Source: Candidatus Micrarchaeota archaeon (GTDB lineage Archaea > Micrarchaeota > Micrarchaeia > Anstonellales > Bilamarchaeaceae). Taken from it: a stretch of DNA of 64,000 bases. The translations under genes and the position numbers were made by a program. Every line of letters starts with the position of its first letter. The stretch's first letter is position 1. The notes under the pieces are model-generated. The model ran no database searches. It was not told where the DNA came from and saw only the letters and a program-made list of their open reading frames with translations. Positions 7,773-57,759 of the stretch are shown piece after piece. Where the stretch lies: assembly GCA_038046805.1 (NCBI GenBank), contig JBBSVO010000002.1, forward strand, positions 2,528 to 66,527, in the 5' to 3' direction.

Positions 7773-8174
7773 TTATAATATTTGTCCCTCGCCTTCTTTA
7801 TCCTCAACGCATTCCCCATACCCTGTTCCGCATTCATTGCATACGCGCCTTCCTGTCGCGCATCCATGCTCATTACAACTTGAAATTGAACCAGGTTCGC
7901 AAATCTTCTTTAACTGGCATTGACGGTATATTCCGTTTTTACATTCCCGAACTCCTTCACATGGTCCAAGCTTGCAGGAATAAACTGCTTCATCACTGCA
8001 TTCGGGACCGGTTGTTGTCTTAAGTTCTGCGTCGGGGGTCTTGAAATGTTCTAGTTCAATCGGGCTTTTCCATTTAAATCCGAGCTGGGGAATTGAAATT
8101 AGCACAACTTCAATAAGCACTAACAAAATCAGAATCGCAATCGTACGCTGGTATTTTTTCAATAGGAAGAGCAT
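7773..8174 (-). CDS. Small membrane-anchored cysteine-rich protein (hypothetical)
   Basis: N-terminal TM anchor 'IAILILLVLIEVVLISI' followed by an ectodomain with about 11 Cys in the last roughly 80 residues. Confidence 0.55.
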   Translation of the reverse strand: MLFLLKKYQRTIAILILLVLIEVVLISIPQLGFKWKSPIELEHFKTPDAELKTTTGPECSDEAVYSCKLGPCEGVRECKNGIYRQCQLKKICEPGSISSCNEHGCATGRRVCNECGTGYGECVEDKEGEGQIL

Positions 8175-8189
8175 TTATTCCACCAGAGT

Positions 8190-9182
8190 TCATTGCATCT
8201 TTATCTTCCAGCCAGAGTTCCCGCTATCTACCTTGAATAGTTGCGCGAGCATGCTCTCCACCCCGAACAGGCTCTCGCTTTCGGTTGGAGACACCTTTAT
8301 CCTACATGTTGTTGGTTCTTTTCCTTTCTCGTATTTCAATCCAGCAAGGTCAGCTGCTTTTCTCAGTGCATCCTTTTTTGTTCCAACTGCATCCACTAAG
8401 CCAATTTCCTTTGCCTGCCTTCCGCTTAACATTCTTCCGTCAAGGACACTCTCAAATTTTTCCATGTTTAGTTTTCCTTTTCTCCCATCAATTACGGTTT
8501 GTTTGAACTCTCCAAAAACTTCATTGATCATATTCTTTATTATCTGTTCCTCATCCGAATCCATCGGACGCGTAGGAGAACCGATATCCTTGTGTTTTCC
8601 AGAAGTTATTGCAGTTGCATTAACCCCTAATTTCCCCAAAAGTCCGCTCATATCAGCAAATGTTGCTACTACTCCAATGCTTCCGGTTATAGCATCAGGA
8701 TCTGAAACAATGTAATCAGTTGCTGTTGCGATATAATACCCGCCAGAGGCCGCAACTTCCCTGAAATACGCAACCTTTGGTTTGCTTAGATTCTTAAGTG
8801 GAAGATATATCTCCCGTGTTGCAACAACCGACCCTCCAGGAGAGTTAACGACGAGTAAAAGTGCAGCTACATTCTCCTTTTCCTCTAATTTTTCAATTTC
8901 CTTTGCAAAATCTGCCGAGCCGGGGGTTCCTTTTACAAATATAGATTCAGAAACGCTTTCTGTCATGATCGGCTGGTTTATTTCAATAATTCCAATACAT
9001 TTGCCACCCGGGAGCTCAAAAACCGATGAAAATACGAATGCAAGTGCAACAAGAACGAAAAATCCGATCGCCAAAAGTGCTATTGTGCCGTAGAGCATTC
9101 TCCTATCTGGAGGTTTTTGCGTGTGCATTTGCTTCTGCGTGAGCGACTGTGCGATTTGTTTGATTTCTGGAGTTACTGCCAT
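8190..9182 (-). CDS. sppA: Signal peptide peptidase SppA (S49 family, 36K type)
   Basis: N-terminal TM, 'LLLVVNSPGGSVVATREIY', 'VAASGGYYIATATDYIV', and a 'GSIGV' serine region. Confidence 0.85.
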   Translation of the reverse strand: MAVTPEIKQIAQSLTQKQMHTQKPPDRRMLYGTIALLAIGFFVLVALAFVFSSVFELPGGKCIGIIEINQPIMTESVSESIFVKGTPGSADFAKEIEKLEEKENVAALLLVVNSPGGSVVATREIYLPLKNLSKPKVAYFREVAASGGYYIATATDYIVSDPDAITGSIGVVATFADMSGLLGKLGVNATAITSGKHKDIGSPTRPMDSDEEQIIKNMINEVFGEFKQTVIDGRKGKLNMEKFESVLDGRMLSGRQAKEIGLVDAVGTKKDALRKAADLAGLKYEKGKEPTTCRIKVSPTESESLFGVESMLAQLFKVDSGNSGWKIKMQ

Positions 9183-11037: not shown

Positions 11038-12294
11038 ATGAAAGACATAATAAAACGCCTCCTTATTGAGTTCTGGGAGTCCAAACCAGCATTTATACCT
11101 CGCCATAAGATACCAGCAGAACTGGTACGAGGAAAACATTCGCTGGTGCTTACGGGTCCACGCCGTGCTGGCAAAAGTTTTTCGGTTCACGAGATTCAAT
11201 CCCAAACCCCAAAAGACATTCCCAATAATATTATTTTCCTGAACTTTGAAGATGACAGGCTTGAAGGGTTTGGAAAGGGGCATTTTGACCTGATACTGGA
11301 AGGATATCATGAACTAAGGCATGAAAAAGCTTTACTGTTCCTTGATGAGGTTCACGTAGTTGATGGCTGGGATGGATTTGTGAGGCGTCTTGCTGATACG
11401 GGGTATAAGGTAGTTGTAACAGGCTCCAATTCAGAATTACTGAGTCGGGAGATTGCAGAAAAGCTTGGCGCACGGTTTACTGAAATAACAATCTTCCCGC
11501 TCGATTTCAAGGAATTCCTGCGGTTTAAAGGCTTTGTAATCAAGCCCGAAACCATATTCTCAAAAGATCGCTTTGCAATAAAGAAGCTCTCATGGGAATA
11601 TCTTTCTTTTGGCGGTTTTCCGGAAATTGCTCAGCTGAACGACGAAGTGGCAAAACGGAGGGTGCTTCAGACATATTTTGACCTTGTTTTCTTCAAGGAT
11701 TTAATCGGTAGAAAGAAGCTTGAGAATGAAGAAGCGCTCAGGTTTATAGTAAAGAAAATACGGGAAAACGTCGGGAATATAATCTCGCCAAGGGCAATAT
11801 ATGCCGCAGCAAAAAAGGCAGGGGTTGAAGTGGGCCCAAATACAGTTGAAAAATACCTGAGCTATCTTGAAGAAGCATTTCTGGTGGTTCCTTGCCTTCC
11901 ATTTGCAAAATCTGTATTGAAGCAGGAAAGGAAAAAAAGGTTTTTTGTAGACAATGGCTATCTGAAGCTTTTTGAGCTGAAAGAGGATATGGGTCTGATG
12001 CTTGAAAATCTGGTTTTCATGGAATTGATAAAAAACGGGAAAAGCGTTTGCTATCATCAGGGAAAGAAAGAGTGCGATTTCATTGTGGATGGGGCGCAGG
12101 CCATTCAGGTTGCTTATGAGCTATCTGAAAAAAACGAGGAACGAGAGCTAGAAGGTCTGCTTGAAGCCATGGAAGTGCATGGGCTGAAAGACGGGTTAGT
12201 AATAACATTTGACGAGGAAAAGCAGGTAAAAATAAATGGCATTACAGTAAAGGTTGTTCCGCTATGGAAATGGATATTACAAACTAAAATATAA
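11038..12294 (+). CDS. AAA+ ATPase, AAA_14 + DUF4143 family (second copy)
   Basis: Walker A 'LTGPRRAGKS', Walker B 'LLFLDEVHVV', and a DUF4143-like C-terminal half ending in a restriction-endonuclease-like 'ECDFIV' region. Confidence 0.85.
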   Translation: MKDIIKRLLIEFWESKPAFIPRHKIPAELVRGKHSLVLTGPRRAGKSFSVHEIQSQTPKDIPNNIIFLNFEDDRLEGFGKGHFDLILEGYHELRHEKALLFLDEVHVVDGWDGFVRRLADTGYKVVVTGSNSELLSREIAEKLGARFTEITIFPLDFKEFLRFKGFVIKPETIFSKDRFAIKKLSWEYLSFGGFPEIAQLNDEVAKRRVLQTYFDLVFFKDLIGRKKLENEEALRFIVKKIRENVGNIISPRAIYAAAKKAGVEVGPNTVEKYLSYLEEAFLVVPCLPFAKSVLKQERKKRFFVDNGYLKLFELKEDMGLMLENLVFMELIKNGKSVCYHQGKKECDFIVDGAQAIQVAYELSEKNEERELEGLLEAMEVHGLKDGLVITFDEEKQVKINGITVKVVPLWKWILQTKI

Positions 12295-13474: not shown

Positions 13475-14476
13475 TTATATAAGCTTTATTAATCCTCTTC
13501 CAACCTCTGGTATGTTCCCTCCGAACAGGCTTGTGCTGGATAACACAAATGTAAGAGTTATTGTAAGCGCCATAAGCGGGATAAGACATATGCTGAGTGT
13601 GAGCTGTTTCACTACTTTGCCGGATATGAATTCAGTTATCATAGAAGTTGACTGAATGTTTCTTTCTATCCAGGATTCCGCCTCTTTTATTTTTGTCTGG
13701 TCAAACATCCCGCTTGAGCTTAAAGGATTGTCTTTTAGCACTGGTATCGCGCACCAGTCTCCACTGTAATCCAGTACCATCAGATCAGTCACTATATACG
13801 AAAGCGGAAATATGAAATACATCCCTATTGCAAATGCCATAACATACGCTCCGGCACCGCGCGTTGGGGGAAATGAACGCATCAATATTCCTGCTGGAAG
13901 AAGAATCGTAAGCGCAGTATATTTTACAAAATTTAAAATATTCACAAAAAGGTAGTATATGAATGTGTAGAATGTTATTGCATTCGTAGTGTTTGATATT
14001 CTTTCGGTTACTGCCTTTACTGCAAATCCGGATGCGACTTCCGACATGAATATTTCGATATATGTACTTGCCGCCATTTCGTGCGGTATCGCTATGATAT
14101 AAAGTGTCGTCATAGCGTTTTTCATACAATCTACCTTTGGTTTCATAAGCGCCTTTGTAAGCTCTATCATGGAAGAATCCGTTGGAACATTGTTCGCACC
14201 AATAGCCTGTTGGGATATGTCATTCATCACGCCCTCCATGAGCGGCTCCATTTCATTCAGAAACAATACGAGGAACAAAACCAGTATCACTGTTGATGCG
14301 GCGAAAACCATCTCGGCTTTTGCATTCTGCTCAAGGTTTTTCAGATCGAAATATTTTGAAACCATCCACAGGATAGTCGCAGCAAACACTGATGCAATCG
14401 TTGCAAGGGCAACGGCGCCCATCCATTGCGGATCCGGAAGCGGTGCAATATTTCCTGCCAGAACACTCATAATCAT
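13475..14476 (-). CDS. Polytopic membrane protein, tandem-array paralog 6 (uncharacterised family)
   Basis: Shares with the five upstream ORFs a TM-'AKAE'-TM hairpin, the loop motif 'LLPAGILMRSFPPTRGAG', and the C-terminal tail 'GGNIPEVGRGLIKLI'. Confidence 0.8.
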   Translation of the reverse strand: MIMSVLAGNIAPLPDPQWMGAVALATIASVFAATILWMVSKYFDLKNLEQNAKAEMVFAASTVILVLFLVLFLNEMEPLMEGVMNDISQQAIGANNVPTDSSMIELTKALMKPKVDCMKNAMTTLYIIAIPHEMAASTYIEIFMSEVASGFAVKAVTERISNTTNAITFYTFIYYLFVNILNFVKYTALTILLPAGILMRSFPPTRGAGAYVMAFAIGMYFIFPLSYIVTDLMVLDYSGDWCAIPVLKDNPLSSSGMFDQTKIKEAESWIERNIQSTSMITEFISGKVVKQLTLSICLIPLMALTITLTFVLSSTSLFGGNIPEVGRGLIKLI

Positions 14477-14489
14477 TACCTGACCTTTC

Positions 14490-15650
14490 TCATATCAGCC
14501 TCGTCAGGCTGCTTATGTCTATTTCTTCACCCATTGTCTTGCTTATGCCTTTTATTGCATGTATTATCAAAAGAATGTTAAATGCTGATGCGAGTCCGAG
14601 TATTATCACAATTCCTATCATCATCATTGGGAGTATGAGGGCCATGTACATCGCGCCTCCGGTTCCGCTTTTGATCAGATTAACAATGAGATTTCCGGTA
14701 GAATATTCCTGAACAGGGCTTGGAGCAGAGCCTGGCGGTCCATTGTTAAGGTTTGGCGTAATCTTCGGGCCTACCCCTACCCAGTTCTCCGCGAATTTAT
14801 CTGCATTGAGCTTTGCCTTATCTGAAGTTATACTAAACACCGGTTTGGCATAAGCCTCCATATTTCCGATCGTTTCTTTTGCGAAATTATCTGTGGTTTC
14901 TCTTAATATCTCTCCGGTTATCACAGTCAAGGCAGGATATATGAACAAAAATCCTATTCCAATTGCAATCAATGTTCCTCCAATCCGCCTTGTTGGCGTG
15001 AAGCACCTCATCATTATCCCGATTGGCAGATAATATTTCAAAAATCCAACTAGCGCGAATTCAAACACTACTTTCTGCGCGTAGTTTGTTATGAATACGA
15101 TTGCAAGGAAATTTGTTGCCTGGTATAAGACATTTTTTATCGGGGCTCCAAGCCCTGCGCCTGGAGAGCTGACCAGTCCAAGACCCAGAGGCTTTGAAAA
15201 TATAGTTGTACTTGCAAGCATGTCAGCCTGCATTGCAAAGAAGTGGTTTGTGATCATTACTCCTATAATCGCTTCTCCATTGTAATTGAAAAAATCCATT
15301 GCCGAGCTGTACATGTTCCAATCCTTATGCGCCGATTCCGGGAATATCCACCCTACTTTTATTTCGCAGAATCTTCCGACCATGAATGCTATCGCAATTA
15401 TTATGATTGCCGTGACAAAAAGTTCATTTACCTCGAATTTCGCATATGCGCTGAGCTCCTGGTTTCTGAACATGACTCCAAAAAGATATATGATTGCAAG
15501 TATCGCTGCTGATGCCGCAAGCGCAATGCCTGCGATTCCCATCCAGTCTGGAAGTCCAAGTGCTGCCATTCCCGAACCGAAGCTTAGTTTCGCCGCAAGT
15601 TCGGTCGTCTTTCCAGCTTCGCACATGACACTTGTTATCTCAACTACCAT
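14490..15650 (-). CDS. Polytopic membrane protein, tandem-array paralog 5
   Basis: 'LPDWMGIAGIALAAS', 'YAKFEV', 'YLPIGIMMRCFTPTRRIG', and the tail 'MGEEIDISSLTRLI'. Confidence 0.8.
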   Translation of the reverse strand: MVVEITSVMCEAGKTTELAAKLSFGSGMAALGLPDWMGIAGIALAASAAILAIIYLFGVMFRNQELSAYAKFEVNELFVTAIIIIAIAFMVGRFCEIKVGWIFPESAHKDWNMYSSAMDFFNYNGEAIIGVMITNHFFAMQADMLASTTIFSKPLGLGLVSSPGAGLGAPIKNVLYQATNFLAIVFITNYAQKVVFEFALVGFLKYYLPIGIMMRCFTPTRRIGGTLIAIGIGFLFIYPALTVITGEILRETTDNFAKETIGNMEAYAKPVFSITSDKAKLNADKFAENWVGVGPKITPNLNNGPPGSAPSPVQEYSTGNLIVNLIKSGTGGAMYMALILPMMMIGIVIILGLASAFNILLIIHAIKGISKTMGEEIDISSLTRLI

Positions 15651-15685
15651 GTTTTACCCTCTCGCAAATATTCATTATGCAATTC

Positions 15686-16990
15686 CTATATCAATTTCAC
15701 AAACGAAGTAAAACTCACTTCTGAGCCGAAAAACCTTGCGATTTCCTTTGCCGCAGTCAGTGTAACAAATATGTTTATGAACGGAAGGATAATGCTCACA
15801 ATTACGATGTAATATACCGCGCTTTTCACTATGTCAAATACAAGGCTGATTACCCCTCCTATGAGTATCGGAACAAGTATTGATCCAACGAGCATTGCGA
15901 GGATTATCGCGGTTATTCCAGCCCCAAAAAGTCCTGTTGAGGTAAAGAAATTTTCCAGGAGTGTGTCGCTTGGGAGTACTACCGGGGAAGTTAGTTTGTA
16001 TGCCTCCCAGTTCATTATCATCATTACTGGATAAACGATTACGAATGAGAACACCAGCGCAAAGAGCGCGGTTCCTGCACTGCGGGTTTGAGGGAATGCC
16101 CGAAGCAGCATTGCCGCGGGAATAAATATTGCGAAAACCCATTTCTTTGTAAAGCACAATATATAGAAGTGGGCAACCCATTCAACAAGGGTTGCTGATA
16201 AAAATTGTATCACGATGCCAACGATATCTACAATCGGCTTTAACACCGGACCAACGTTGAATGAGAACATTGCCTTGAACGTTATTCCTACGTATATTGT
16301 TGCACTGTAAAGTGTATGCAGCCACATATTAAACAGCAAAAGAGAGGAAAGATTGCTTGCTATCTGGTAAGTCATATATTGCGAGTATATCATCGCAGCG
16401 TCTATTATCGAAGTAGTCTGTTTGTATATGGCGTCTTCTGCAAGTTCCGAGCCGGGAGCTATTTTGACATTGAACCATATATTCATCGTGACCATTATTC
16501 CTATGATAAAAACTGCCAGAAATATTGTCATTAGTGTCTGCCACCATTCCTCTCTGGCTATTGAAAGAAGTTGAGGTGATTGCAGTGCCTGACCCACAAG
16601 GTATAATACAGCGATTGCCAGAAAGATTATTCCTGCTGCATATATAGAATATGAAAGCATGTTGGCGTATTTTCCAGCGTCAAATTCTCCCTTTGCCTTT
16701 GCAGCCTTTGGGGCGGCGTCCTCTGCCCATGCATCCTCGCATGTTATCCTGTCAAGCGGTCCGGAAATGGTCTTGAATGCCCAACTGCCTATATTCTTGA
16801 GCCCGTCTATAGAGTAAGATTGGATAACATTGCTTGAATCCGTATATGATTTCCAGCTGTTTGGATCGTTTGGTTCTGTGGGTTGCGCAAATGTAACACT
16901 ACCTAAAATAAAAATGAGCAAAATCACTGCAAGTGCAGGTACCCCTGACCTGGGCTTCCATACTTGTGCAGTTTCCTTTGTTTCGTTCAT
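15686..16990 (-). CDS. Polytopic membrane protein, tandem-array paralog 4 (with N-terminal signal/anchor)
   Basis: 'FIPAAMLLRAFPQTRSAG' and the tail 'FGSEVSFTSFVKLI'. The N-terminus 'VPALAVILLIFILGSVTFAQP' looks like a signal peptide. Confidence 0.8.
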   Translation of the reverse strand: MNETKETAQVWKPRSGVPALAVILLIFILGSVTFAQPTEPNDPNSWKSYTDSSNVIQSYSIDGLKNIGSWAFKTISGPLDRITCEDAWAEDAAPKAAKAKGEFDAGKYANMLSYSIYAAGIIFLAIAVLYLVGQALQSPQLLSIAREEWWQTLMTIFLAVFIIGIMVTMNIWFNVKIAPGSELAEDAIYKQTTSIIDAAMIYSQYMTYQIASNLSSLLLFNMWLHTLYSATIYVGITFKAMFSFNVGPVLKPIVDIVGIVIQFLSATLVEWVAHFYILCFTKKWVFAIFIPAAMLLRAFPQTRSAGTALFALVFSFVIVYPVMMIMNWEAYKLTSPVVLPSDTLLENFFTSTGLFGAGITAIILAMLVGSILVPILIGGVISLVFDIVKSAVYYIVIVSIILPFINIFVTLTAAKEIARFFGSEVSFTSFVKLI

Positions 16991-17061
16991 TTTATCATCC
17001 GTATTTTTTACTCTTTTATAATCTCTTATGATCTAATTGCGTGGTTATCAATCTCCATTTA

Positions 17062-18384
17062 TCATATCAGGTGTGTTAGTCCTGCAATTTCCAGATCTCC
17101 GCCAAATATTGCAGACATGCTTTTTATCGCAGCAATAGTTGCCATGACCCCGAGAAATGAAAAGAACAGGGAAAAAAATGTAAGCCTGCTTGCCGCGTCT
17201 ATGTATCCTCCGCGTGCAAGGGTTTCAGTGATGACTTTCCCAGGATTATACCAGTTTTGCTGGTCCAGTTCTTTGCCCCAGATATTAACTTCGTCTTCCA
17301 TACTCTTTGTTTTCTTTCCTTCTTCCACAGCATTATCTATTACCCCGCAAAAATCCAAACCCAAATCCGTCCCGCCTAATTTGTTCATCGGACTTCCGGT
17401 TCCTGTTCCGCCAAATGCATCTGTTCCATAATTGCTTTTTCCAGCCGCCTCTATCTCGTTATACCCTAACACTCCGCCACTCATGATCTTTCCGAATATC
17501 GGAAGGTCATCTTTTTCAACATATATAGAACTTATCGCGAGCGCATTCGGATCCCCTCCGGATGCAGTTATCGCCTTTAGTTTCATCTGCCCGTAGAATA
17601 CTCCTCCGAGCGCATAAAACATTGGGAATATAAAAAACATCGAAAGAGCCATTGCCATTAGTAATCCTCCAAGTTTTCTGGTGAAGAAAAATGTTCTAAG
17701 TACGATTCCAATGGTAAACATTACTGGGAAGATACCCATTGCTATAAACCTGAGAAGAACTTCCTGGAATTTCGTTATCGTCATCAATTTAACTGTATAA
17801 TCAAACATATTTGATTTTACTATATTTCCCTGCACGAAAAATCCTTTTATTGGAGTATATGCAAATACCCCTGTTTTTTCTCCTGTTATTTCTATGTTCA
17901 GGTTTACTTCTGCAAGCATGGACGTGACGATATATTCCCGATACATCTGCGAAGCAAGTTCATTGCCTTCGTTGAATATGGAATTCAGGAAATGCATCCC
18001 AACCTTTATGTGGCAGGGAAGTCCGTCGTAGTAATCTGCCTTTGCAAACGCATCGCTACAGACTGCCTGCCCCAGAACGTCTTTTCCAATTGGTTCGTTC
18101 GGGTTTGTAACAAGCGATTCCGCGACCTGGTTTGCACCTCCCAAAAACGAAATAGTAAGTACAATGAGGACTGCAGAGTAAATTACTTCCACAACTTCTA
18201 TTCTTGCCCAGGTCTTTATCTTGTCATTGGAAAGAAAGGCCCCAAGAATATATACCAAACTAAGAATTCCAGCAGATATTACAAGCAATACTGCTGCAAT
18301 TTGTAACCAGTCAGTGTATACGCTAGTGAGAAATCCAAGCGCATTGCCGTTTTTCAATAATTCAATGTCAATCATTTTTATCAT
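17062..18384 (-). CDS. Polytopic membrane protein, tandem-array paralog 3
   Basis: 'DWLQIAAVLLV', 'WARIEV', 'TIGIVLRTFFFTRKLG', and the tail 'FGGDLEIAGLTHLI'. Confidence 0.8.
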   Translation of the reverse strand: MIKMIDIELLKNGNALGFLTSVYTDWLQIAAVLLVISAGILSLVYILGAFLSNDKIKTWARIEVVEVIYSAVLIVLTISFLGGANQVAESLVTNPNEPIGKDVLGQAVCSDAFAKADYYDGLPCHIKVGMHFLNSIFNEGNELASQMYREYIVTSMLAEVNLNIEITGEKTGVFAYTPIKGFFVQGNIVKSNMFDYTVKLMTITKFQEVLLRFIAMGIFPVMFTIGIVLRTFFFTRKLGGLLMAMALSMFFIFPMFYALGGVFYGQMKLKAITASGGDPNALAISSIYVEKDDLPIFGKIMSGGVLGYNEIEAAGKSNYGTDAFGGTGTGSPMNKLGGTDLGLDFCGVIDNAVEEGKKTKSMEDEVNIWGKELDQQNWYNPGKVITETLARGGYIDAASRLTFFSLFFSFLGVMATIAAIKSMSAIFGGDLEIAGLTHLI

Positions 18385-19430
18385 GCCTTTGAGATTATAA
18401 ATTTCGTAACTGCATTTATAAACGAAAACGTAATTACTGTTGAGAATGCGGGCAGGAATAATGAGACCAGCGAAAGCTCCCCGAGTGCCTCAAGTAAGGG
18501 CTTCATTAGTAAAAATGTGACGCTGTATGCCATGCTTTCCATTGTGAGGGTACTTATCGCGGTTCCGGCAAATGCTCCAAGTGCTGGTACTCCCATTGCT
18601 CCGAATAGAAACTTATTTACATCAGCCAGTATTGTGCCGCCAGCTCCGATTATTGCAGCACTTCCTACAAATCCCCATTTCCAGTAGCCTATTTCCCCAG
18701 AACCGATATATGGGATATATTCAGTGCCCCGTTCGGTAATCTGCCATAAGTCATTAAGTGCCATTTCATTTAGCACATACGTCATAGGGAGCACTGTCTG
18801 GAAGGCTATAGATGCAACTATCAAAAATGTCCCGGCATCTTTTGTTGGCGGAAGAAATCTGAGAAGAATTCCGGCGGGCAGTAAGAATTTATATGCTATG
18901 GCGTCTACGATTGAGAGTATAAAAACCTGTGCAGAAAGGCTGCTATATACCATTGCCAGTGCATATCCAAGAACATTTGTTATTCCAACAACACCATCAG
19001 AACCCGGGGCTACCTTGTATATCCATGTCCATACAGCTTCGTGCGGCCTGAAATACAATGTGTTATATGTTGAGAATGCAACCTGAATTGTGTACACGTC
19101 ATTTATTGCCTCAAGAACGCCCTGAGACTTTATCTTTTGCAGAAATTTCATCGCTGAATTTATTGGGTCGTTTCCTATCATTGTGCATGAAGCGGATTTC
19201 ATTCCCTCAAAAAATGCCACTGCAAGTATAAGCGTAAGAAGTGCGAGCCAGATATCTCCCAGTCCAACTTTCGCGCCTGCCTCCCATTCCGGTCTTTTGA
19301 ACATTATCCCGGCGGCGTATTTTATCAGGGTAAAAAGCGCCAGGAATATGACTACTACTGCAGTTAGCTGATAATATTCAATGGATGGATTTGCTACGGC
19401 AAACGGGAATCCACTTACAACACACGCCAT
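18381..19430 (-). CDS. Polytopic membrane protein, tandem-array paralog 2 (lacks the conserved tail)
   Basis: 'LLPAGILLRFLPPTKDAG'. It ends '..NAVTKFIISKA' without the GxExEI..LI tail, and its stop overlaps the paralog-3 start by 4 nt. Confidence 0.75.
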   Translation of the reverse strand: MACVVSGFPFAVANPSIEYYQLTAVVVIFLALFTLIKYAAGIMFKRPEWEAGAKVGLGDIWLALLTLILAVAFFEGMKSASCTMIGNDPINSAMKFLQKIKSQGVLEAINDVYTIQVAFSTYNTLYFRPHEAVWTWIYKVAPGSDGVVGITNVLGYALAMVYSSLSAQVFILSIVDAIAYKFLLPAGILLRFLPPTKDAGTFLIVASIAFQTVLPMTYVLNEMALNDLWQITERGTEYIPYIGSGEIGYWKWGFVGSAAIIGAGGTILADVNKFLFGAMGVPALGAFAGTAISTLTMESMAYSVTFLLMKPLLEALGELSLVSLFLPAFSTVITFSFINAVTKFIISKA

Positions 19431-19489
19431 ATGTCTGTCCTCCAGTTACTCTAGTCTGTTTACACTGTTTACTCTAATCTGCTTACTGT

Positions 19490-20767
19490 TTACACCAGTT
19501 TTGTTATACCTATTATTTCCTGTTCTCCGCCAATGATCGCGCTTATGTTTCGGTACATTGTTATTGTTATTATTATTTCGAATACTGATGTTACGATTAC
19601 AAGAATGACAAATTGCGATACGATTACTACTTCTTCAACTATGAAGTAATAAAGACCCTGGACTACTCCCACGGCAGGACCGACACCCCAAAGAAGGGAT
19701 GTAATTGAAATCCCAAAGTCTCCAAAAAGTTTTACCATAAATTTGAATACATCTTTTGCGGTTTTCAGTACGCCCGTAATATTGTCCCACATGTCTCCAA
19801 AAAAGCCAGTTATTTTTGTTGAGGTTGATTCATCGGGCTTTGTCCCATAATTTGCCATGACACCGCTTGCGCTTTCGCCAGAAATTTTTTCCCACGTCTC
19901 TCTCATTTCCACCAGTTTGTCTGTTTTTGTCTTCAATGCATTTTCCTCTGCTGTGGGGTCTCCGTTTGCAGCGCAAAACCCTATCGCAGTGGGAACATAT
20001 ACCATATCTATGGGCTTATACACATCGAATATGAGGTAATTAGAAAGAATTATGCTAAGCGGATAAACAAAATATGCGACAATACATATCGCAATTATGC
20101 TCGAACCTGTTGAGCGGAGCATAGGAAATGCGCGCATAACCAATCCAAGCGGAAGGAGTATTGTTGGGATAACGTACGTTGCAAACTGGATGAGGTGTTG
20201 TTTTGATACTATCGCTACCATCACCATTCCTATTGCCTCAACCAATACTGTGTGTGCATTACTCAGAAGTGACAAGCCCACTAGTGGAGGAACAGAAATT
20301 GGCAACACTGCCAGTAATGGATTAAACGTTCCAGCTGAAATATAAATCGTTGAAAGGAATCCAATGAGCATTTCAAAGAGATATAAGCTTACGTAAATTG
20401 ATTTTAGTTCCTGAAATAATAATTCAAGAGATGCATACGCGATACCAAGATGCGATGGACTTAGGGATTTTGCCAAGGTGGTTGTGTCGCAACTATTAGC
20501 TGTTCCGGTTATCACAAGTCTACAGGCGCCCTCCCACATTATTCCCTGAAAAAAGAACCATCCACCTACAATTATAATGCTCATTATAAGTGCTGCTAGT
20601 TCTTCTTTTGCAGCTGCGTTGAGAGGTGGGTGCTGCAGAAAATATGAAGCAAGATACATTCCTCCGGTTACAGCTATTCCGATCAGGATAGCAATTCCGA
20701 TATACTGGATGGGGAACGTGGCAGAAGTTAAAGTAAAAAGTAGCGGAAGCAACGCAGTTATTCCCAT
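19490..20767 (-). CDS. Polytopic membrane protein, tandem-array paralog 1
   Basis: 'AAKEEL', 'LLPLGLVMRAFPMLRSTG', and the tail 'IGGEQEIIGITKLV'. I prefer the start at Met22 (20767). The track start at 20830 would overlap the divergent pilin-like gene. Confidence 0.75.
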   Translation of the reverse strand: MGITALLPLLFTLTSATFPIQYIGIAILIGIAVTGGMYLASYFLQHPPLNAAAKEELAALIMSIIIVGGWFFFQGIMWEGACRLVITGTANSCDTTTLAKSLSPSHLGIAYASLELLFQELKSIYVSLYLFEMLIGFLSTIYISAGTFNPLLAVLPISVPPLVGLSLLSNAHTVLVEAIGMVMVAIVSKQHLIQFATYVIPTILLPLGLVMRAFPMLRSTGSSIIAICIVAYFVYPLSIILSNYLIFDVYKPIDMVYVPTAIGFCAANGDPTAEENALKTKTDKLVEMRETWEKISGESASGVMANYGTKPDESTSTKITGFFGDMWDNITGVLKTAKDVFKFMVKLFGDFGISITSLLWGVGPAVGVVQGLYYFIVEEVVIVSQFVILVIVTSVFEIIITITMYRNISAIIGGEQEIIGITKLV

Positions 20768-20790
20768 GTATAAATCTGCGGACCCAGTTC

Positions 20791-20799
20791 TTTTAAATG
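20791..20799. promoter_or_regulatory. Candidate shared bidirectional TATA box ('ttttaaatg')
   Basis: This is the only A/T box placed about 26-28 nt from both start codons in the 53-bp gap. It lies about 26 nt from the + strand start (20821) and about 28 nt from the - strand start (20767). That spacing fits leaderless archaeal transcripts. Confidence 0.4.
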
Positions 20800-20820
20800 T
20801 ATCCTCTGTAATTATTTGTG

Positions 20821-21405
20821 ATGAATCCAATAACCTGTCCGGGAGCTTTCAGAACCGGTTTTATCTTTTCCATAGATTCGTTCGTTGCATTTTCTCTTTC
20901 ACTAGTGGCAATTTATTCAATGCTCTTCTTTTCCAGCATCCCCTCAGCGTATTATTCCTCTCTTATGCAGGCACATTATCTTGCAAAGGACACGCTCACT
21001 GCCCTCTCACTTTCAAATTCTTCTGAAGATGGGGTAAGTGAATTGGGCTATCTTTTATTTGTGGTTTCAAAACCAGCACAATCTGCCGTCATAGAAGAAA
21101 GGATTGGTCCGCTTATTCCAAATCAATTCGGTTATCTGGTTGAAACAAGTGAAGATGGCGAAGAATGGGACGTAGTATACGACACAAAAGATAATCCATC
21201 TGATTCACATAACAAGGCATATAACAAACTAAGAGCATCTGCAGGAACGCTTATTTTCGGTTATGCATCCTCTCCAAAGACCCCGCAAAGCCCATATCGC
21301 TATATTACCTGCAATGGCCCCTACACACAATGCGGTCCGGCATCAAGTCCATATCCCCGTGCAACTGGAAGCATGAAACTCGTGCGGTTGGTGGTGTACG
21401 TATGA
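20821..21405 (+). CDS. Class III signal peptide (type IV pilin-like) protein 1
   Basis: N-terminus 'MNPITCPGAFRTG|FIFSIDSFVAFSLSLVAIYSMLFF': a short polar leader, Gly, then a hydrophobic helix with an acidic residue at +6. Confidence 0.65.
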   Translation: MNPITCPGAFRTGFIFSIDSFVAFSLSLVAIYSMLFFSSIPSAYYSSLMQAHYLAKDTLTALSLSNSSEDGVSELGYLLFVVSKPAQSAVIEERIGPLIPNQFGYLVETSEDGEEWDVVYDTKDNPSDSHNKAYNKLRASAGTLIFGYASSPKTPQSPYRYITCNGPYTQCGPASSPYPRATGSMKLVRLVVYV

Positions 21406-22973
21406 CGAATTATAAGGGATTCTTTTTCGTGCTCGTCTCGTTTTTCATACTGGGGTATATTCTTACATCGTTGACTCTTTGGACAAAATCCATAGATGTT
21501 GCAGAGAAGAAATTCGCTGAAAAATTCAAATTTTCCAATATCGAGCTTGCTGTTTCGCAACTTACAGAAGAAAAAGTTTCTGATTTCGCAGAGATGAGTG
21601 CATATTACGCACTTTACAAATTAAATGAGCACAGCATAAATTATCCGGTTGTTCCAGTCGAGGGTAGTTCAGGGAGCGAAGCTGATTTTAAGAATGCGAA
21701 AGACGCTGTCTGGTCTATGATACAAAACGGAAGTGCATCTGGAAATTATTTTGAAGAAAACGTGCCTCTTATTTATGATACCTCCGAACAGTCCGATCTT
21801 ACGTTTGCAGGGTGGTTCGGTTCAATCAACAAAAGCCTTTCATATATAGGCGCGCAGGTGGATTCATTCGGGGTTTCCGGATTCACAATGAATCAGACGG
21901 ACTTTTCCCATCTTAACTATTCGTTCAAGGTTGATTTTTCCGCATCTGACAAAAGCGGTATCATGTTTATCACACGTTCGTTCGTTGTCAATGGAACTCT
22001 TGAATTGCAGGGACTTGACGACCCGGCAGTTGCAAGAGAAACAAAAAAAATATTAAATGGGAGCGAAGTGCGAAAGCAATTCTTTTTCCATGATGATTAC
22101 CCTTCACCAGCTTCAACCAATCCTGCGCAAATCGCTGCAGGTTCTGCAGGCCAGGGGTGGTTTTACGGTGCAGTTGTTCAGGCAATCGATGCTCCTGCTA
22201 TAAAACCGTTCCAGCGAAATACCACGATTTTGGTTGGCACATACGAAGAAATAACCTCCCTGGTTGGTATTAACTATAATTTCCAGGATTTCGGTGCGTT
22301 CATCCTCACGAGCGAGCCATCAACTGTGGATTCTGGTTGTGGTGGTTCAAAGAAAAACGAGCTTAACACATTCAATGCAATTAATTATGATTCAACTTCC
22401 TGTTCTGCAAAGATAAACGGAGGGTCAAAAACAGAGAAGCCGTTTATTGTGGCAAAGGATTTCCAGATTGCCGTTCCATACCCCGGGTTTGATTCAACGT
22501 TCGTCCTGTTTGTGAATTCCGCGGACCAGTCCGAGGTGTCATCGAACCCGGAAAAGAAATCCGGCTCTCCGAAAATTTACAATATAGAATTACTTCGGGA
22601 TTATGCAATCTGCAGTTATTACACTGCGAATCCAAAGGCTCCGTCCTATTTCCAGCGCCTGTTTAAGAATTCTTATGAACTGGAAGGCGGAAAGCTTGGA
22701 ATAGAATCATTTGTCTTCGGAAAATGGCTTGGCGGAAGTGATTATCCTGCTGCCGACATTTATAGTAGATTAGATCGGGAAATGTTCAAGGAAATAACCG
22801 GAACAAACATACGTGGAATGCCCGGATGTAAAAACAAGGAGATGTGCGGAAGCGATTCTCAGGTTGGACATTTCAAACTAACAGACCCAAGCGCTAAAAA
22901 TTATATAGGGCCCGATGCAACTGATTCAACAAACGGTTTGTTTTGTAGTAAAGGTGCATCGTGCGGAAACTGA
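21402..22973 (+). CDS. Large class III signal peptide (pilin-like) surface protein 2
   Basis: The start ATG (21402) overlaps the upstream stop (ATGA). N-terminus 'MTNYKG|FFFVLVSFFILGYILTSL' precedes a roughly 500-aa ectodomain containing scattered Cys. Confidence 0.7.
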   Translation: MTNYKGFFFVLVSFFILGYILTSLTLWTKSIDVAEKKFAEKFKFSNIELAVSQLTEEKVSDFAEMSAYYALYKLNEHSINYPVVPVEGSSGSEADFKNAKDAVWSMIQNGSASGNYFEENVPLIYDTSEQSDLTFAGWFGSINKSLSYIGAQVDSFGVSGFTMNQTDFSHLNYSFKVDFSASDKSGIMFITRSFVVNGTLELQGLDDPAVARETKKILNGSEVRKQFFFHDDYPSPASTNPAQIAAGSAGQGWFYGAVVQAIDAPAIKPFQRNTTILVGTYEEITSLVGINYNFQDFGAFILTSEPSTVDSGCGGSKKNELNTFNAINYDSTSCSAKINGGSKTEKPFIVAKDFQIAVPYPGFDSTFVLFVNSADQSEVSSNPEKKSGSPKIYNIELLRDYAICSYYTANPKAPSYFQRLFKNSYELEGGKLGIESFVFGKWLGGSDYPAADIYSRLDREMFKEITGTNIRGMPGCKNKEMCGSDSQVGHFKLTDPSAKNYIGPDATDSTNGLFCSKGASCGN

Positions 22974-22978
22974 TATTT

Positions 22979-23431
22979 ATGATAAACACAGGATTTAAGA
23001 CCCCTGATTTACTGTTCGGAACCCGTCGTGGTCAGGCTTCTACCGAGATGCTTGTTACAGTGGCAACAATCCTGGTATTTACAATTCCGATAATTCTTCT
23101 ACTTTTTGCGCTTTCTCAATATGGTCAGGAATCCACTTCAATCGCACAGGCACATGCAACTGTTCGCATAATTTCGGATTCAATCAACACAGTTTATATC
23201 CAGGGTCCTGGCGCTGAGAAAAGCCTTTTGGTTGGCATACCTGGAAACGCGGATCTTCTCAAAGTAGAGAATGGCGAAGTTTCATTGATACTTAGGACTT
23301 CTGGTGGAATGTATGAGGCAAGCAATCCTTTGCTTACAAATGCATCTGCTGGTTCAGATTTTTCCAATAAATCCGGGTTATTACCAGTGAAAATAAAGAA
23401 TGAAAACGGAGTGGTAGTTGTATATGGATAA
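22979..23431 (+). CDS. Class III signal peptide (archaeal pilin-like) protein 3
   Basis: '...FGTRRG|QASTEMLVTVATILVFTIPIILL' is the classic [KR]G/Q.S.E pattern, with Glu at +5. Confidence 0.75.
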   Translation: MINTGFKTPDLLFGTRRGQASTEMLVTVATILVFTIPIILLLFALSQYGQESTSIAQAHATVRIISDSINTVYIQGPGAEKSLLVGIPGNADLLKVENGEVSLILRTSGGMYEASNPLLTNASAGSDFSNKSGLLPVKIKNENGVVVVYG

Positions 23432-23927
23432 CTGCAACGTTTCGCGTTCCGAGTCCCGCGTTTCGCGTTCCGGTCAGGTTGCAACCGAGCTTATGCTTTA
23501 CTCCGGCGTATTCCTGATAATAGTTATATCCGTTGCATCTGTCCTTTATCTTTTACAGGGCAGCGACATAAATTCTCTTGAATATTCCATTGTCAAAGAA
23601 ACCGCAGAATCGTTCTCAGATTCAATCAATCTGGCAGTGCGGGGGGGACAGACGTTTTCGTATTACTATAATTTCCCGCGTACTGTGCTCGGAGGAGGTT
23701 ATTCCATAATATTTACAAAATCCTCTGCAATCGTGCACTGGCAAGGTTCTAGAGGAAATATGAGTTATTCCTATTCTATTGCTCCGGCTAACTTTACATT
23801 CAATGGTTGTGTTGTTTCGTTGCAGGGTGGTTCTGCCGGGCAGCTCGATAGCCAAAAAGGGCAGAATCTACTCATAGTCACAAATAACGGAAATGGAATA
23901 GAACTCATGCAACCCGGGTGCAGTTGA
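23424..23927 (+). CDS. Class III signal peptide (archaeal pilin-like) protein 4
   Basis: 'MDNCNVSRSESRVSRSG|QVATELMLYSGVFLIIVISV'. It overlaps the upstream gene by 8 nt. The leader is encoded by a short tandem DNA repeat (gtttcgcgttccg x2). Confidence 0.75.
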   Translation: MDNCNVSRSESRVSRSGQVATELMLYSGVFLIIVISVASVLYLLQGSDINSLEYSIVKETAESFSDSINLAVRGGQTFSYYYNFPRTVLGGGYSIIFTKSSAIVHWQGSRGNMSYSYSIAPANFTFNGCVVSLQGGSAGQLDSQKGQNLLIVTNNGNGIELMQPGCS

Positions 23928-23936
23928 GGTGTATTG

Positions 23937-24461
23937 ATGAAAAGACAATTGATGAAAGGACAATATTTCAGCTTTGATGCGATTATTGCTTCGGTCGTTT
24001 TCGTACTCACAGTACTTGCGCTAATGTCTTACTGGAACAGTGTTAAAGCAGGGATGGAAACCTACTCGGATGAAACAACAAAAGAAGCAATTCGCATTTC
24101 AGATCTTTTACTTTCCCCCCCGGAGCCACTTGAAATTACAGATTGCAGCGGAACTGCTGATAAAGAAGTCAAGAGACTTGGTTTTGCGGTTTCCTGGGAA
24201 AATCGTCAATTATCCAAACAACTTCTTACGAATTGCCAATCTATAACTCAGGAGAATCTGCGTTCTTTGCTTGGAACTCCTTACAATGTTTCAATATTTG
24301 TAAATTCCTCAAGCGGATCGTTTGACTCACTTCAGATAGGAAAATCATTTGAGGACACTCCACAGTCAAAAAATGCTGCAAAAGTAAGACGGCTCGTTGC
24401 CCTTCGCGATGATACGGGAGAGGCAACTCTTGCAACAATGGATATTCTCGTGTATCAATAA
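23937..24461 (+). CDS. Class III signal peptide (archaeal pilin-like) protein 5
   Basis: 'MKRQLMKG|QYFSFDAIIASVVFVLTVLALM'. Confidence 0.7.
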   Translation: MKRQLMKGQYFSFDAIIASVVFVLTVLALMSYWNSVKAGMETYSDETTKEAIRISDLLLSPPEPLEITDCSGTADKEVKRLGFAVSWENRQLSKQLLTNCQSITQENLRSLLGTPYNVSIFVNSSSGSFDSLQIGKSFEDTPQSKNAAKVRRLVALRDDTGEATLATMDILVYQ

Positions 24462-36856: not shown

Positions 36857-38959
36857 ATGTCCAAGTCTAAAAACGAATACTCCGAGCTTGCCATGTACTC
36901 AGAGAAGATTACGAAAGAGGACTACAAACGCTTATTTGACACAATCATAAAGAAAAATATCCCGATCTTCGAATTCATTGATTTATCAAAAATCTTCTCT
37001 TTCAGTGGGTTCCAGATCGTGGTAAAGCGCTTCAACAACACTATAAAGATGTATTTTGGCGGCAGGTCCATAGAAGCGCACCAGCAGGCTGCCCTGTTCT
37101 TTCCGTTTAAAATCGATGCGCCAAAGGAATTGGAATTAACCAAGAGCCACTTTTCACTTAAAACCAAGTTCGTGAGCCACATCAATATGTTCGACTTTTT
37201 GATAAAAGAGGATGTGGCCGAAATACGCGTAAAAATAATGAAACTGTTCGGAAGATACTATGGATTCGGGAACTTCATATCCCAGGAAGGGGAGCGCGGC
37301 ATCCTTTATCTCTCAAATCCAACAACGTTCTTTGAAATTGATCTTGAGAAAAATCCGCAATTTTATATAGAGCTTCTTGATCCGATACCAAAGGCAGTTT
37401 ACCTTAAATCTGACGATCCAATTTTTGAGCAGGATGGAATAACGATAGGCACGGACAACTTCAGTGCAATGCAGCACAGCCTTATTGTTGGTTCTTCGGG
37501 AACTGGAAAGAGCAAATTCATAGAAATATTAATTCGCGCGATGAAAAAGCGCCACGGCCACAATTTGCGCGTTCTTGTGATAGATCCGCATGGTGAATTC
37601 TCCAAAACATTCGAAGGCGAAAAAGTAGTGGACTTCGTAGAAAACTACATCGAGCCGTTTGATATCGGAAAGGAAAAGAGCCCGCTTATTACCCAGCTTG
37701 TCGCCCAGTTAATAACCTCTACAATCAGCCAGGAGAACAAGTATGCAGAGCGCGTTGTTTTCTATGCCGTGCACATGCTTGCGGAAACAGACCAGCTTAC
37801 ACTTCAGAATATCAACCTGTTGCTCACAGACTCGGCAAAAAGAATGGAATTCAGTTCATTGTGCCACAATGACGAGGTGCGCAGGTTCTTTGATGAGGAG
37901 TTCCAAAATATTTATCTTCATCACTTTAATGATGCAATACTGCCAGTCATTAATTTCATAGGAGAATACCAGCTTTATCTCGGAAAGGCAAAAAAGCTCG
38001 AAACGCTTGAAGAACTGCTGAAAAACAACGTGGTCACGGTCGTTTCATTCAACCCGCACTATTTTGGAAGAAAAATAATCCGATTCTTTGCCGGCGCGAT
38101 CATAAACCAGATTTATATGATGGCCATAAGCGAGAAACTCACAATGCCAACAGTGCTTGTAGTGGATGAATTCCCAACTGTGGAAAGCAGGGTTACAAAG
38201 GATATTCTTGCCGAAACAAGAAAGTTCCAGCTTTACATGCATGTTTCTGCGCAGTATCTAGGCCAGCTCTCAAAGCCTGTTCTGGATGCAATAGTCAGCA
38301 ACGTACGAAACATAATTTCGTTCAAATGCACCCGTGATGATGCGCATTTCCTCGTATCTATGATGGAAATCAAGGTAGAAGAGTTCTTCAAGAAAAAAAC
38401 CAGCCCAAGCGAGCTCGAGGAATCCAAGAAGGAAATGTTTCTTAAACTCCATCCAAGGGAATGCATTGTCCGTCTTTTTGACGGTGCAAAATACATTCTT
38501 CCAATGAAGGTAAAAACTGTCAATATGGAAACCTGGAGGAATATGCCGTCGACTGGTTCGCGTCCATTCCAACCTGTTCCCCCATCATCTTCTTCCCCTA
38601 CACCTCCACCTTCATCTTCTCCATTTTCTCCACCTTCTTCTGGCGGCTTAGCTCAGCCAGCTGAGAAAACGCAGGAACCATTACAGGAAAAAGATGAACC
38701 CGGCGAGCGAGAATATAAAAAATATCTTGAAGATCAAGAGCTTGAAAAAGAATCTGGCGCTCCATCCTCCGAAGAGAAAAAACTTGAAAAATTTGAAAAA
38801 GTTGAAAACCCCCCAGAGAAATCAACAGAAAAAACCAAGCAGTCTGGAAAACCAACGGGCAAATCTAAGGAAAAAGAGAAGGAAAAAGGAAAGCGGGGCG
38901 TAAAGGTTACTTACGAAGACGAAGAGGACGAGAATCCATTCAGGAATAGGGAGATATAG
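36857..38959 (+). CDS. HerA/FtsK-superfamily ATPase (DUF87-like) with a disordered P/S- then K/E-rich C-terminal tail
   Basis: 'HSLIVGSSGTGKSKF' (Walker A), 'RVLVIDPHGEF' (HerA hallmark), 'TVLVVDEFPT' (Walker B), and 'ETRKFQLYMHVSAQYLGQL'. The last roughly 150 aa are low-complexity (PPSSSSPTPPPSSSPFSPP..., EKEKEKGKR). Confidence 0.8.
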   Translation: MSKSKNEYSELAMYSEKITKEDYKRLFDTIIKKNIPIFEFIDLSKIFSFSGFQIVVKRFNNTIKMYFGGRSIEAHQQAALFFPFKIDAPKELELTKSHFSLKTKFVSHINMFDFLIKEDVAEIRVKIMKLFGRYYGFGNFISQEGERGILYLSNPTTFFEIDLEKNPQFYIELLDPIPKAVYLKSDDPIFEQDGITIGTDNFSAMQHSLIVGSSGTGKSKFIEILIRAMKKRHGHNLRVLVIDPHGEFSKTFEGEKVVDFVENYIEPFDIGKEKSPLITQLVAQLITSTISQENKYAERVVFYAVHMLAETDQLTLQNINLLLTDSAKRMEFSSLCHNDEVRRFFDEEFQNIYLHHFNDAILPVINFIGEYQLYLGKAKKLETLEELLKNNVVTVVSFNPHYFGRKIIRFFAGAIINQIYMMAISEKLTMPTVLVVDEFPTVESRVTKDILAETRKFQLYMHVSAQYLGQLSKPVLDAIVSNVRNIISFKCTRDDAHFLVSMMEIKVEEFFKKKTSPSELEESKKEMFLKLHPRECIVRLFDGAKYILPMKVKTVNMETWRNMPSTGSRPFQPVPPSSSSPTPPPSSSPFSPPSSGGLAQPAEKTQEPLQEKDEPGEREYKKYLEDQELEKESGAPSSEEKKLEKFEKVENPPEKSTEKTKQSGKPTGKSKEKEKEKGKRGVKVTYEDEEDENPFRNREI

Positions 38960-52562: not shown

Positions 52563-53132
52563 ATGCGAGGAGCAGAAGCGATTGTTTCGAATTCACGTTT
52601 GCTTGGTCTTCCAGTCGTAATCAAGGATCGGATTCCAAAAACCTATCGCAACAAGACGCTGGACGCTAAACTCAGGACCGAAAGGACAAAACGCGAAGCT
52701 CGTCTTCTCAATAAGGCAAAGATTGCCGGAGTTCCCTGTCCTATAGTTCTGGAAGTTTCTGAATTCGGAATAACAATGACAAAAATTCGCGGAAAACGTG
52801 CGGATTTAATAAAAAATAAAAATTCCGCCAAAACTGCTGGAAAGTATCTTGCACAGCTTCATGCATCCAATCTTATTCATGGGGATTATACTCCGGCAAA
52901 TCTAATCGTCTCGTCTGGTGCATCCCAGAACCTGTTCGTTATTGATTTTGGCCTGGGATTTTTCTCCGAGGATGTGGAAGACAAGGCAATTGATGTGCTG
53001 ACAATGCTTAAGGCAATACCAGAATCCGCACAGGCGCAAAAAGCGTTTCTGAAAGGATATTCGAAATACAAAAAATATTCCGCTGTCCTGAAGAGAGTTG
53101 AGGAAGTGAAGAAAAGGGCGAGGTATGCATAG
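52563..53132 (+). CDS. bud32: KEOPS kinase Bud32 (Kae1-associated kinase)
   Basis: 'RGAEA', 'KDRIPKTYRNKTLDAKLRTERTKREARLL', 'LIHGDYTPANLIV', and 'VIDFGL'. Confidence 0.8.
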   Translation: MRGAEAIVSNSRLLGLPVVIKDRIPKTYRNKTLDAKLRTERTKREARLLNKAKIAGVPCPIVLEVSEFGITMTKIRGKRADLIKNKNSAKTAGKYLAQLHASNLIHGDYTPANLIVSSGASQNLFVIDFGLGFFSEDVEDKAIDVLTMLKAIPESAQAQKAFLKGYSKYKKYSAVLKRVEEVKKRARYA

Positions 53133-53145
53133 TTTGGGTGCGTTC

Positions 53146-57498: not shown

Positions 57499-57759
57499 AG
57501 TAAGTATATGTTATAATAAGGTAATTAAGGTTTATGTAATGGGTTTCGGGTCTTCAGTTCCGCGTTTTGGAAGATAATTATTTATGGTCTCGCATTATGT
57601 GTTCCGAGCGCAAGAGTGTTTGCTAGTAAACCTCTATGGTTTTTGGCAAGTGCCCGTCCTTGTCCTAATATATTTGAAATCCAAAAGGCTTGTGGCACGC
57701 AGATTTAAAAAGAAATTGCTCTATATTCCATCATTCGACCAGATATTTCGGGTGAAACA

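Follow-up and report, generated by a model that had tools for sequence, protein, structure and literature searches.

A conserved operon of five putative prepilin-like proteins in Micrarchaeota with no pilus assembly genes nearby

The Micrarchaeota have very small cells and reduced genomes, and they live in attachment to other archaea as hosts. Electron microscopy in the first studies of ARMAN showed connections resembling pili (cited in PMC5498576), and the micrarchaeon Candidatus Mancarchaeum acidiphilum Mia14 harbors two pilus ATPase/TadC loci, one FlaK-like peptidase and seven class III genes beside one of the ATPases (Golyshina et al., PMC5498576); this strain was reported with a Clade 1 system (PMC5498576). 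Type IV pilus genes were also reported in a set of metagenome-assembled genomes (MAGs) that includes the MAG carrying one of the loci analyzed here, L022 (PMC8561730). Two members of the phylum, Mia14 and Ca. Micrarchaeum harzensis A_DKE, are available in co-culture. In archaea, ATPase/TadC modules work with pilins from other loci, and there are known loci with at least five minor pilins, one of them large (Makarova, Koonin & Albers 2016, PMC4858521). The signature minor pilin of the euryarchaeal Clade 2 (PilB4-type locus of Haloferax volcanii) is arCOG02911, described as all-beta and Ig-like (PMC4858521). Archaeal class III pilin-like sets encoded apart from their motor are, in other words, already known. 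Here, we analyzed a stretch of 64,000 nucleotides (nt), in the following called the window, from a groundwater contig of the Micrarchaeota (DPANN). It carries an operon of five genes, here named G1 to G5. What is new about this operon is that it consists of five unannotated families in a rigid order across the sampled Micrarchaeota, not found in other lineages save for one probably mis-binned contig. Its products are probably five prepilin-like proteins with class III signal peptides, encoded in one translationally coupled operon, which would represent minor pilins or tip subunits whose assembly machinery lies at another place in the genome.

The source contig (99.5 kb) stems from Hainich groundwater (well H52, 0.2 µm fraction) and carries the archaeal marker genes GatD/GatE, TBP, MCM, Cdc48, SepF and ScpA. 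Together with 10 kb on either side of the window, the analyzed part of the genome comprised ~84 kb. The operon consists of the following genes, in which a slash marks the predicted cleavage site and signed numbers give residue positions relative to it:

G1, 20821-21405, plus strand: 194 amino acids; leader MNPITCPGAFRTG, junction FRTG/FIFSID (FIFSIDSFVAF...), Asp at +6, non-canonical class III-like
G2, 21402-22973, plus strand: 523 amino acids, the "giant" of the set; leader MTNYKG, then FFFVLV
G3, 22979-23431, plus strand: 150 amino acids; predicted canonical class III site RRG/QASTEML, Glu at +5
G4, 23424-23927, plus strand: 167 amino acids; RSG/QVATELM, Glu at +5, Ser at -2 in the window genome
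G5, 23937-24461, plus strand: 174 amino acids; MKG/QYFSFDAII, Asp at +6

The five plus-strand open reading frames (ORFs) had been proposed in an original prediction made from the window sequence. Their coordinates and N termini match the sequence and the public gene calls for the source contig, which list the same five products. The tight coupling of the genes described there was confirmed in the sequence as well, the junctions being, in order, a 4-nt ATGA overlap, a 5-nt spacer, an 8-nt overlap (G3/G4) and a 9-nt spacer. An alternative GTG start of G3 at position 22961 would give a protein of 156 amino acids. Each of the five proteins has exactly one hydrophobic segment, which is located at its N terminus. 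A scan of 659 stop-to-stop frames of the window for [KR][GA] and a hydrophobic stretch near a start codon yielded N-terminal matches only in G2, G3, G5 and a further gene outside the operon (g6, see below). Most of the remaining matches fell within membrane proteins, in internal helices, or in shadow frames. In the window genome, G1 and G4 carry R-x-G (R-T-G and R-S-G, respectively) instead of [KR][GA]. The clustering of pilin-like N termini in the operon exceeds chance.

Conservation of the N-terminal junctions was analyzed in alignments of 33 to 41 divergent relatives per family (30 to 46% identity). In all five families, the leader is short and charged, its last residues are [KR]-[GA], and a hydrophobic helix of ~20 residues comes directly after it; the type IV pilin-like character of the N termini is upheld. 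The G3 junction reads [KR][GA]/Q..xE, with Gln at +1 and Glu at +5 invariant in 40/40 relatives. G4 has [KR]G/QVAxEF, with Gln at +1 and Glu at +5 in 38/38 and [KR] at -2 in 33/38 relatives. For G1, the junction [RK][AG]/F[IV]FS[LI]D is present in 40/41 relatives, including Asp at +6 in 40/40, and the G5 junction, KG/QYFSFDA, is nearly invariant in 38 relatives, all of which have Asp at +6 (38/38). Relatives of G2 show [KR]G/F[FL]F and no acidic residue at positions +1 to +14 (33/33). An acidic residue near mature position +5 is thus present in the G1, G3, G4 and G5 families and missing in G2, as in cap pseudopilins.

In all five families, the first 25 mature residues are better conserved than the remainder (0.63 to 0.86 versus 0.45 to 0.51), which is the pattern of type IV pilins. 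In G1, these 25 residues are 86% conserved compared to 49% elsewhere, and two Cys are invariant. G2 has six conserved Cys. Together with N-X-S/T sequons, the conserved Cys of both families fit putative extracellular domains. In the relatives, a median of 5 to 19 nt lies between the stop codon of one gene and the cleavage motif of the next; leaders are therefore often only 2 to 6 residues long, and coupling of the genes is conserved.

Furthermore, we applied a re-implemented FlaFind-type pattern ([KRDE][GA][ALIFQMVED][ILMVTAS]x3 plus a hydrophobic stretch). In this re-implementation, the strict pattern was passed by 37/40 G3 and 33/38 G4 sequences and by g6, compared to 3/41 for G1 and 0/33 for G2, while G5 passed only at a shifted DA/II site and not at its conserved KG/Q junction. 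G1, G2 and G5 fail because of the aromatic residues at +2/+3. The class III signals assigned to all five proteins in the original prediction hold for G3 and G4, which have the canonical [KR]G/Q..xE site with Glu at +5 throughout, but not in the strict form for the other three. On sequence grounds, the class III assignment of G3, G4 and g6 is solid. Since the strict pattern failed for G1, G2 and G5, we infer their class III signals, and hence their cleavage, from the conserved junctions.

To see how the operon is organized in related organisms, 45 genome loci, 80 metagenome loci and the loci of four very divergent G2 homologs were sampled, and gene order was derived from ORF clustering and family hidden Markov models. 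The order G1-G2-G3-G4-G5 is kept in 64 of 132 loci. Most loci without the full order are truncated by contig ends, and a few appear to miss one gene in the ORF calls. The operon is also found around the very divergent G2 homologs, and the G1 family is present in 44/45 genome loci. Full-length homologs of G2 share 33 to 46% identity with it. A G2 profile searched against 1.84 billion representative proteins gave 587 matches at E<0.001, of which 180 were at E<1e-30, and all matches with an organism name bore Micrarchaeota labels, save for one short contig that is probably mis-binned. Likewise, the best 120 matches of the G5 profile were all from Micrarchaeota. The labels among named G2 and G5 matches were Micrarchaeota, Micrarchaeia, Bilamarchaeaceae, Anstonellales and, in a few cases, "Ca. 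ainarchaeum sp.". All five families are called "hypothetical" in public records, and a literature search found no paper describing the operon. Across the sampled Micrarchaeota, it ranks with the most rigidly conserved operons for surface proteins.

Relationships among the five families and to described domains are distant. G3 and G4 are paralogs (hhalign probability of 91% over 104 columns), G1 and G5 are alike only in their N-terminal segment, and G1 has no Pfam match. The window G5 aligned to DUF7287 (PF23958) with 22.3 bits and an E value of 2.2e-4 over profile positions 8 to 148 of 157, the cut-off being 27 bits; among its relatives, 15/38 matched DUF7287 at E<0.01 (best, 3.8e-6). By these profile scores, G5 is a probable distant relative of the uncharacterized DUF7287 and, by the curated cut-off, not a member. 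PF04021 (Class_IIIsignal) was touched by 2/56 G3/G4 relatives at an E value of ~0.005 and by none of the window proteins. One G3/G4 relative weakly matched DUF7266, and one G1 relative matched DUF7262.

Structures of G2 and G5 were predicted with AlphaFold2, and both models are of high confidence. The G5 model (predicted local distance difference test [pLDDT], 90.3) comprises a helix at residues 11 to 58, a loop with two short helices and a four-stranded sheet; as modelled, this is the classical pilin layout of an N-terminal helix of ~50 residues plus a sheet. The G2 model (pLDDT, 89.8; predicted template modeling score, 0.81) starts with a helix at residues 4 to 52, which is followed by further helices and beta-rich (alpha/beta) domains. 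As predicted, G2 apparently has a new fold without a solved relative.

We also searched for genes encoding pilus machinery. Pfam searches of the window, which covered nearly all non-shadow ORFs of at least 110 amino acids, gave no match to T2SSE, T2SSF or Peptidase_A24, and neither did the precomputed Pfam calls for the 10 kb beyond each window end. Among ~1,700 ORFs of ~130 to 140 loci, no T2SSE-like Walker A motif was found, and none of the 64 loci with the full gene order has a PilB/FlaI-like ATPase within 10 kb. The claim of the original prediction that genes for an assembly ATPase, a platform protein and an A24 peptidase are missing near the operon is consequently borne out in the window, its 10-kb flanks and ~130 related loci. 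The machinery is indeed not nearby, but the motor-less arrangement singled out there is not anomalous, because pilin sets encoded at a distance are known to serve archaeal ATPase/TadC modules (PMC4858521) and because Micrarchaeota genomes reportedly carry a type IV pilus ATPase, TadC and one FlaK-like peptidase at other sites (PMC5498576, PMC8561730). Recurring neighbors of the operon, namely, ABC transporter, SerRS, TFIIB, CorA, primase-like and radical-SAM genes, were considered as motor candidates and rejected.

A sixth gene with a pilin-like N terminus is present in the window:

g6, 60246-60728, plus strand: 160 amino acids; TKG/QVSSELL; G3 paralog outside the operon

The original prediction had described this gene as standing alone. 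It instead overlaps the stop of an upstream CBS-domain/S30AE-like gene by 14 nt (window block 59162-60728), and in ORF clustering it groups with the G3 family. The context SepF/ScpA/CBS/g6 is kept in several Micrarchaeota (L016, L017, L033, L041 and L145). One g6 homolog carries the IMG label "pseudopilin PulG". From its sequence, g6 is a candidate additional or major subunit.

The genomic neighborhood of the operon shows recurring genes as well. The usual upstream order in relatives is a membrane-paralog array, a PIN-domain gene, RNA ligase, CarS, an S49 peptidase, a small Cys-rich membrane protein and G1. The S49/NfeD1b-type peptidase gene and the small gene immediately precede G1, in the same orientation, in most relatives, even in very divergent genomes (loci L007, L022 and L059 are among those showing this arrangement), and the S49 peptidase gene was found upstream in 30/45 genome loci. 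The product of the small gene has an N-terminal transmembrane helix and a Cys-rich domain; roughly half of the genome loci have a small gene of one ORF cluster (c9), and a different small gene can take its place. In the window, the S49 peptidase is encoded at 8190-9182, and the block of S49 and small genes (7773-9182, minus strand) was moved 12 kb off by a rearrangement. The window start truncates a plus-strand gene (28-543) for a presenilin/SPP-type GxGD aspartyl protease of the family PF06550, which is distinct from A24; it is complete in locus L143 (9393-10229), where it encodes 278 amino acids. The gene belongs to a LeuRS/Trm5/SPP/MCM block, which in other Micrarchaeota is found a few kilobases downstream of the operon. 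Presenilin/SPP-type and A24 prepilin peptidases belong to the same mechanistic class and form separate families.

The gene array next to the operon in the window consists of six tandem paralogs for polytopic membrane proteins (13475-20830, minus strand) with 17 to 22% identity and 5 to 9 hydrophobic segments each. They share the core motif LLPAGILxRxFPPTRxAG and the C-terminal tail FGGExxIxGLTKLI. Tandem arrays of two to six copies occur in at least 15 Micrarchaeota loci, in most cases with a gene for a PIN_5 ribonuclease after them, and in 15/45 genome loci a same-family array lies at most 10 kb from the operon. The original prediction had named the array as the neighbor of the operon. It does adjoin the operon in the window, but in most relatives it lies five or more genes off: the array abuts G1 here because the upstream block is inverted, and the adjacency is therefore lineage-specific. 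No Pfam (six window paralogs and 40 members), NCBIfam or PDB sequence match was obtained for the membrane family. The array was accordingly rejected as a hidden T2SSF/TadC/FlaJ platform, since it matched neither PF00482 nor any other Pfam or PDB entry, and synteny led us to reject it as a constant partner of the operon. The starts of G1 (ATG at 20821, plus strand) and of the first membrane paralog (ATG at 20767, minus strand) diverge and are only 53 nt apart, with one element midway between them:

TATA-like element TTTTAAAT, 20791-20798: read from the sequence; midway between the divergent starts of G1 and the first membrane paralog

The element is near-palindromic and single, and it is located 23 to 30 nt from the G1 ATG and 24 to 31 nt from the minus-strand ATG of the public gene call. 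This spacing suggests a candidate promoter element shared by two leaderless transcripts.

Further observations concern other parts of the window. Two paralogous AAA_14/DUF4143 ATPase genes in inverted orientation (3383-4663, minus strand; 11038-12294, plus strand) are located within the rearranged region, and this family is missing from the corresponding position in nearly all related loci. The pair may be involved in the rearrangement. The sole Rfam match in the window is a signal recognition particle (SRP) RNA at 57250-57500 on the minus strand, for which the best model is the bacterial large SRP RNA (66 bits), although the organism is an archaeon. No tRNA genes were found in the 64 kb. The region 36857-42121 encodes a HerA/FtsK/TrwB-like P-loop ATPase of 700 amino acids, followed by two abutting proteins of 525 amino acids without a family match, which cluster with two unannotated genes at 53125-53943 and 53903-54799.

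For G1 to G5 as a prepilin-like set, we propose the following mechanism. Each protein would insert into the membrane via its N-terminal helix, and a GxGD prepilin peptidase encoded elsewhere would cut behind the conserved [KR]-[GA] and so remove the short leader. A PilB/FlaI-type ATPase and a TadC/FlaJ platform, likewise encoded elsewhere, would raise the mature subunits into a short helical assembly in which they would be held together through their N-terminal helices. The four small proteins (G3/G4 with Glu at +5, G1/G5 with Asp at +6) would form the initiating or tip complex, and the Cys-rich, 523-amino-acid G2 without an acidic residue would sit at the distal end, where it would cap the assembly and probably make contact. 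The shaft would be built from the separately encoded, G3-like g6 or from other pilins. We infer this tip-complex arrangement by analogy, taking the bacterial GspH-K and FimU-PilVWX sets as the model; assembly in trans, the stoichiometry of the subunits, their position at the tip and a possible role in host attachment belong to the same proposal.

Several results weigh against such a minor-pilin set. None of the six pilin-like window proteins scored over any Pfam or NCBIfam cut-off, and in searches that also covered the family alignments only G5 gave a consistent weak match, namely, to DUF7287. Profile searches of PDB sequences with G1 to G5 were empty and returned no pilin, pseudopilin, archaellin or other structure. 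In Foldseek comparisons with the PDB, the best TM-score of the G2 model was 0.14, with no GspK-like or other match, and the matches of the G5 model included no pilin; because no solved pilin was obtained, the pilin likeness of both models is one of architecture only. In the window genome, the residue at -2 is Thr in G1 and Ser in G4 rather than Lys or Arg. No ATPase, platform or A24 peptidase is encoded in the ~84 kb of the genome analyzed, and in ~130 loci the operon never adjoins an assembly ATPase, so that what ties it functionally to type IV pilus machinery is its N-terminal motif, together with analogy. Together with the failure of G1, G2 and G5 to pass the strict pattern at their conserved junction, the missing structural match to solved pilins and the lack of machinery in all loci also fit a different reading, to which we give a modest chance: some or all of the proteins, especially G1, G2 and G5, might be uncleaved, bitopic, signal-anchored proteins of a membrane-bound surface complex that forms no filament, such as a FlaF/FlaG-like or PilN/PilO-like scaffold, an S-layer anchor or a host-contact patch. 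The G5 model with its long helix, helical loop and small sheet would suit a transmembrane/coiled-coil/alpha-beta scaffold, too. A plain anchor, however, leaves unexplained why [KR]-[GA] at the start of the helix is invariant in five families, and the same applies to the invariant Gln or Phe at +1 and to Glu at +5 or Asp at +6; moreover, the canonical G3 and G4 are part of the same operon. The leaders of the relatives, which often consist of just Met and two residues, would agree with uncleaved proteins, but PibD-type peptidases reportedly accept leaders down to about three residues (Ng et al. 2009, J Bacteriol).

The five genes might also specify a self-contained pseudopilus of one major and four minor subunits, similar to GspG-K or ComGC-GG, that acts as a short, non-adhesive piston or conduit through the S-layer and serves export or the uptake of DNA or other host material. 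The bacterial Gsp and ComG sets comprise five pseudopilins as well, and G2 as the largest member lacks the acidic residue, as does GspK. This argument is purely analogical, however, and in structure G2 is unlike GspK and G5 unlike any pseudopilin. While a near-universal operon of fixed order in a host-dependent phylum with reduced genomes and the automatic annotation of a g6 relative as PulG would be in line with a pseudopilus, no secretin-like, ComEC-like or ATPase gene is linked, and the separate g6 could supply the shaft; we regard this version as distinctly unlikely. An organelle specific to Micrarchaeota is unlikely as well, if a little less so: here, the five proteins would form a self-contained pseudopilus or contact device in which the new-fold, ~520-amino-acid G2 at the distal end joins the host cell, and G1, G2 and G5 would perhaps be processed by a non-A24 protease. 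Candidate alternative processors might be the presenilin/SPP-type GxGD protease or the S49 peptidase, both of which recur nearby. Lastly, it is highly improbable that the operon and the divergent six-paralog membrane array constitute one system in which the array replaces the canonical platform. Direct adjacency and a possibly shared promoter element in the window, as well as the same-family arrays within 10 kb in a third of the genome loci, would favor a partnership, but PIN-domain, RNA ligase, CarS, S49 and other genes intervene in those loci, and the adjacency in the window results from rearrangement. Many loci with a 10-kb upstream flank have no array at all, the membrane family resembles neither T2SSF nor any Pfam or PDB entry, and an ATPase is absent beside the array.

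Under the reading as a minor-pilin or tip set, G1 to G5 are concrete candidates for the host-attachment apparatus of Micrarchaeota and extend the census of archaeal pilins to DPANN. Class III-like junctions with aromatic residues at +2/+3 are likely missed by pattern-based predictors.

Comparison with described systems reveals partial likeness in each case. The bacterial sets GspH-I-J-K plus GspG, FimU-PilVWX(E) and ComGC-GG likewise consist of four to five small prepilins encoded together, and GspK is the largest member, lacks Glu at +5 and caps the tip, which parallels the acid-free N terminus of G2 (+1 to +14 in 33/33). There is no sequence or fold similarity to these sets, however, and the Micrarchaeota proteins have archaeal leaders and Asp+6 variants and are encoded outside a machinery operon. 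In Haloferax volcanii, the pilins PilA1-6 are scattered, and the PilB3/PilC3 locus, whose ATPase and platform assemble them, contains no pilins (PMC4858521). The PilA proteins are paralogous major pilins with a common H-domain, whereas the operon described here combines five distinct families in fixed order.

With Clade 2, the operon shares a set of about five class III proteins, including one large protein (250 to 550 amino acids), that are predicted minor pilins (PMC4858521), and the weak matches to DUF7287, DUF7288, DUF7266 and DUF7262 hint at distant kinship. No member of G1 to G5 reaches a family cut-off, though, and the Micrarchaeota set was never found beside an ATPase in ~130 loci. Whereas arCOG02911 is all-beta and Ig-like by description, the G2 model is mixed alpha/beta without a PDB match. 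Clade 1 (Epd; Methanococcus, Methanothermobacter and Thermococcus) is similar in that the [KR]G/Q.(S/A).E junction of G3, G4 and g6 resembles the QxSxE of PF04021, and in that an operon of several minor pilins (five or more in Epd) is combined with a small, stand-alone major pilin (PMC4858521). In this case, the differences are that only 2/56 G3/G4 relatives touch PF04021 (E of ~0.005) and that Epd loci hold the ATPase, two TadC proteins, EppA and DUF2341 adhesins, none of which is linked to G1 to G5. Within the same phylum, Ca. Mancarchaeum acidiphilum Mia14 has a run of class III genes of similar number by annotation (seven, MIA14_0254-0260, in the locus MIA14_0252-0260; PMC5498576), but its pilin genes adjoin an ATPase and TadC. 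If the Mia14 genes are orthologous to G1 to G5, they would provide a direct link of the operon to a motor; if not, they would indicate that Micrarchaeota pilus loci can hold a pilin set of their own.

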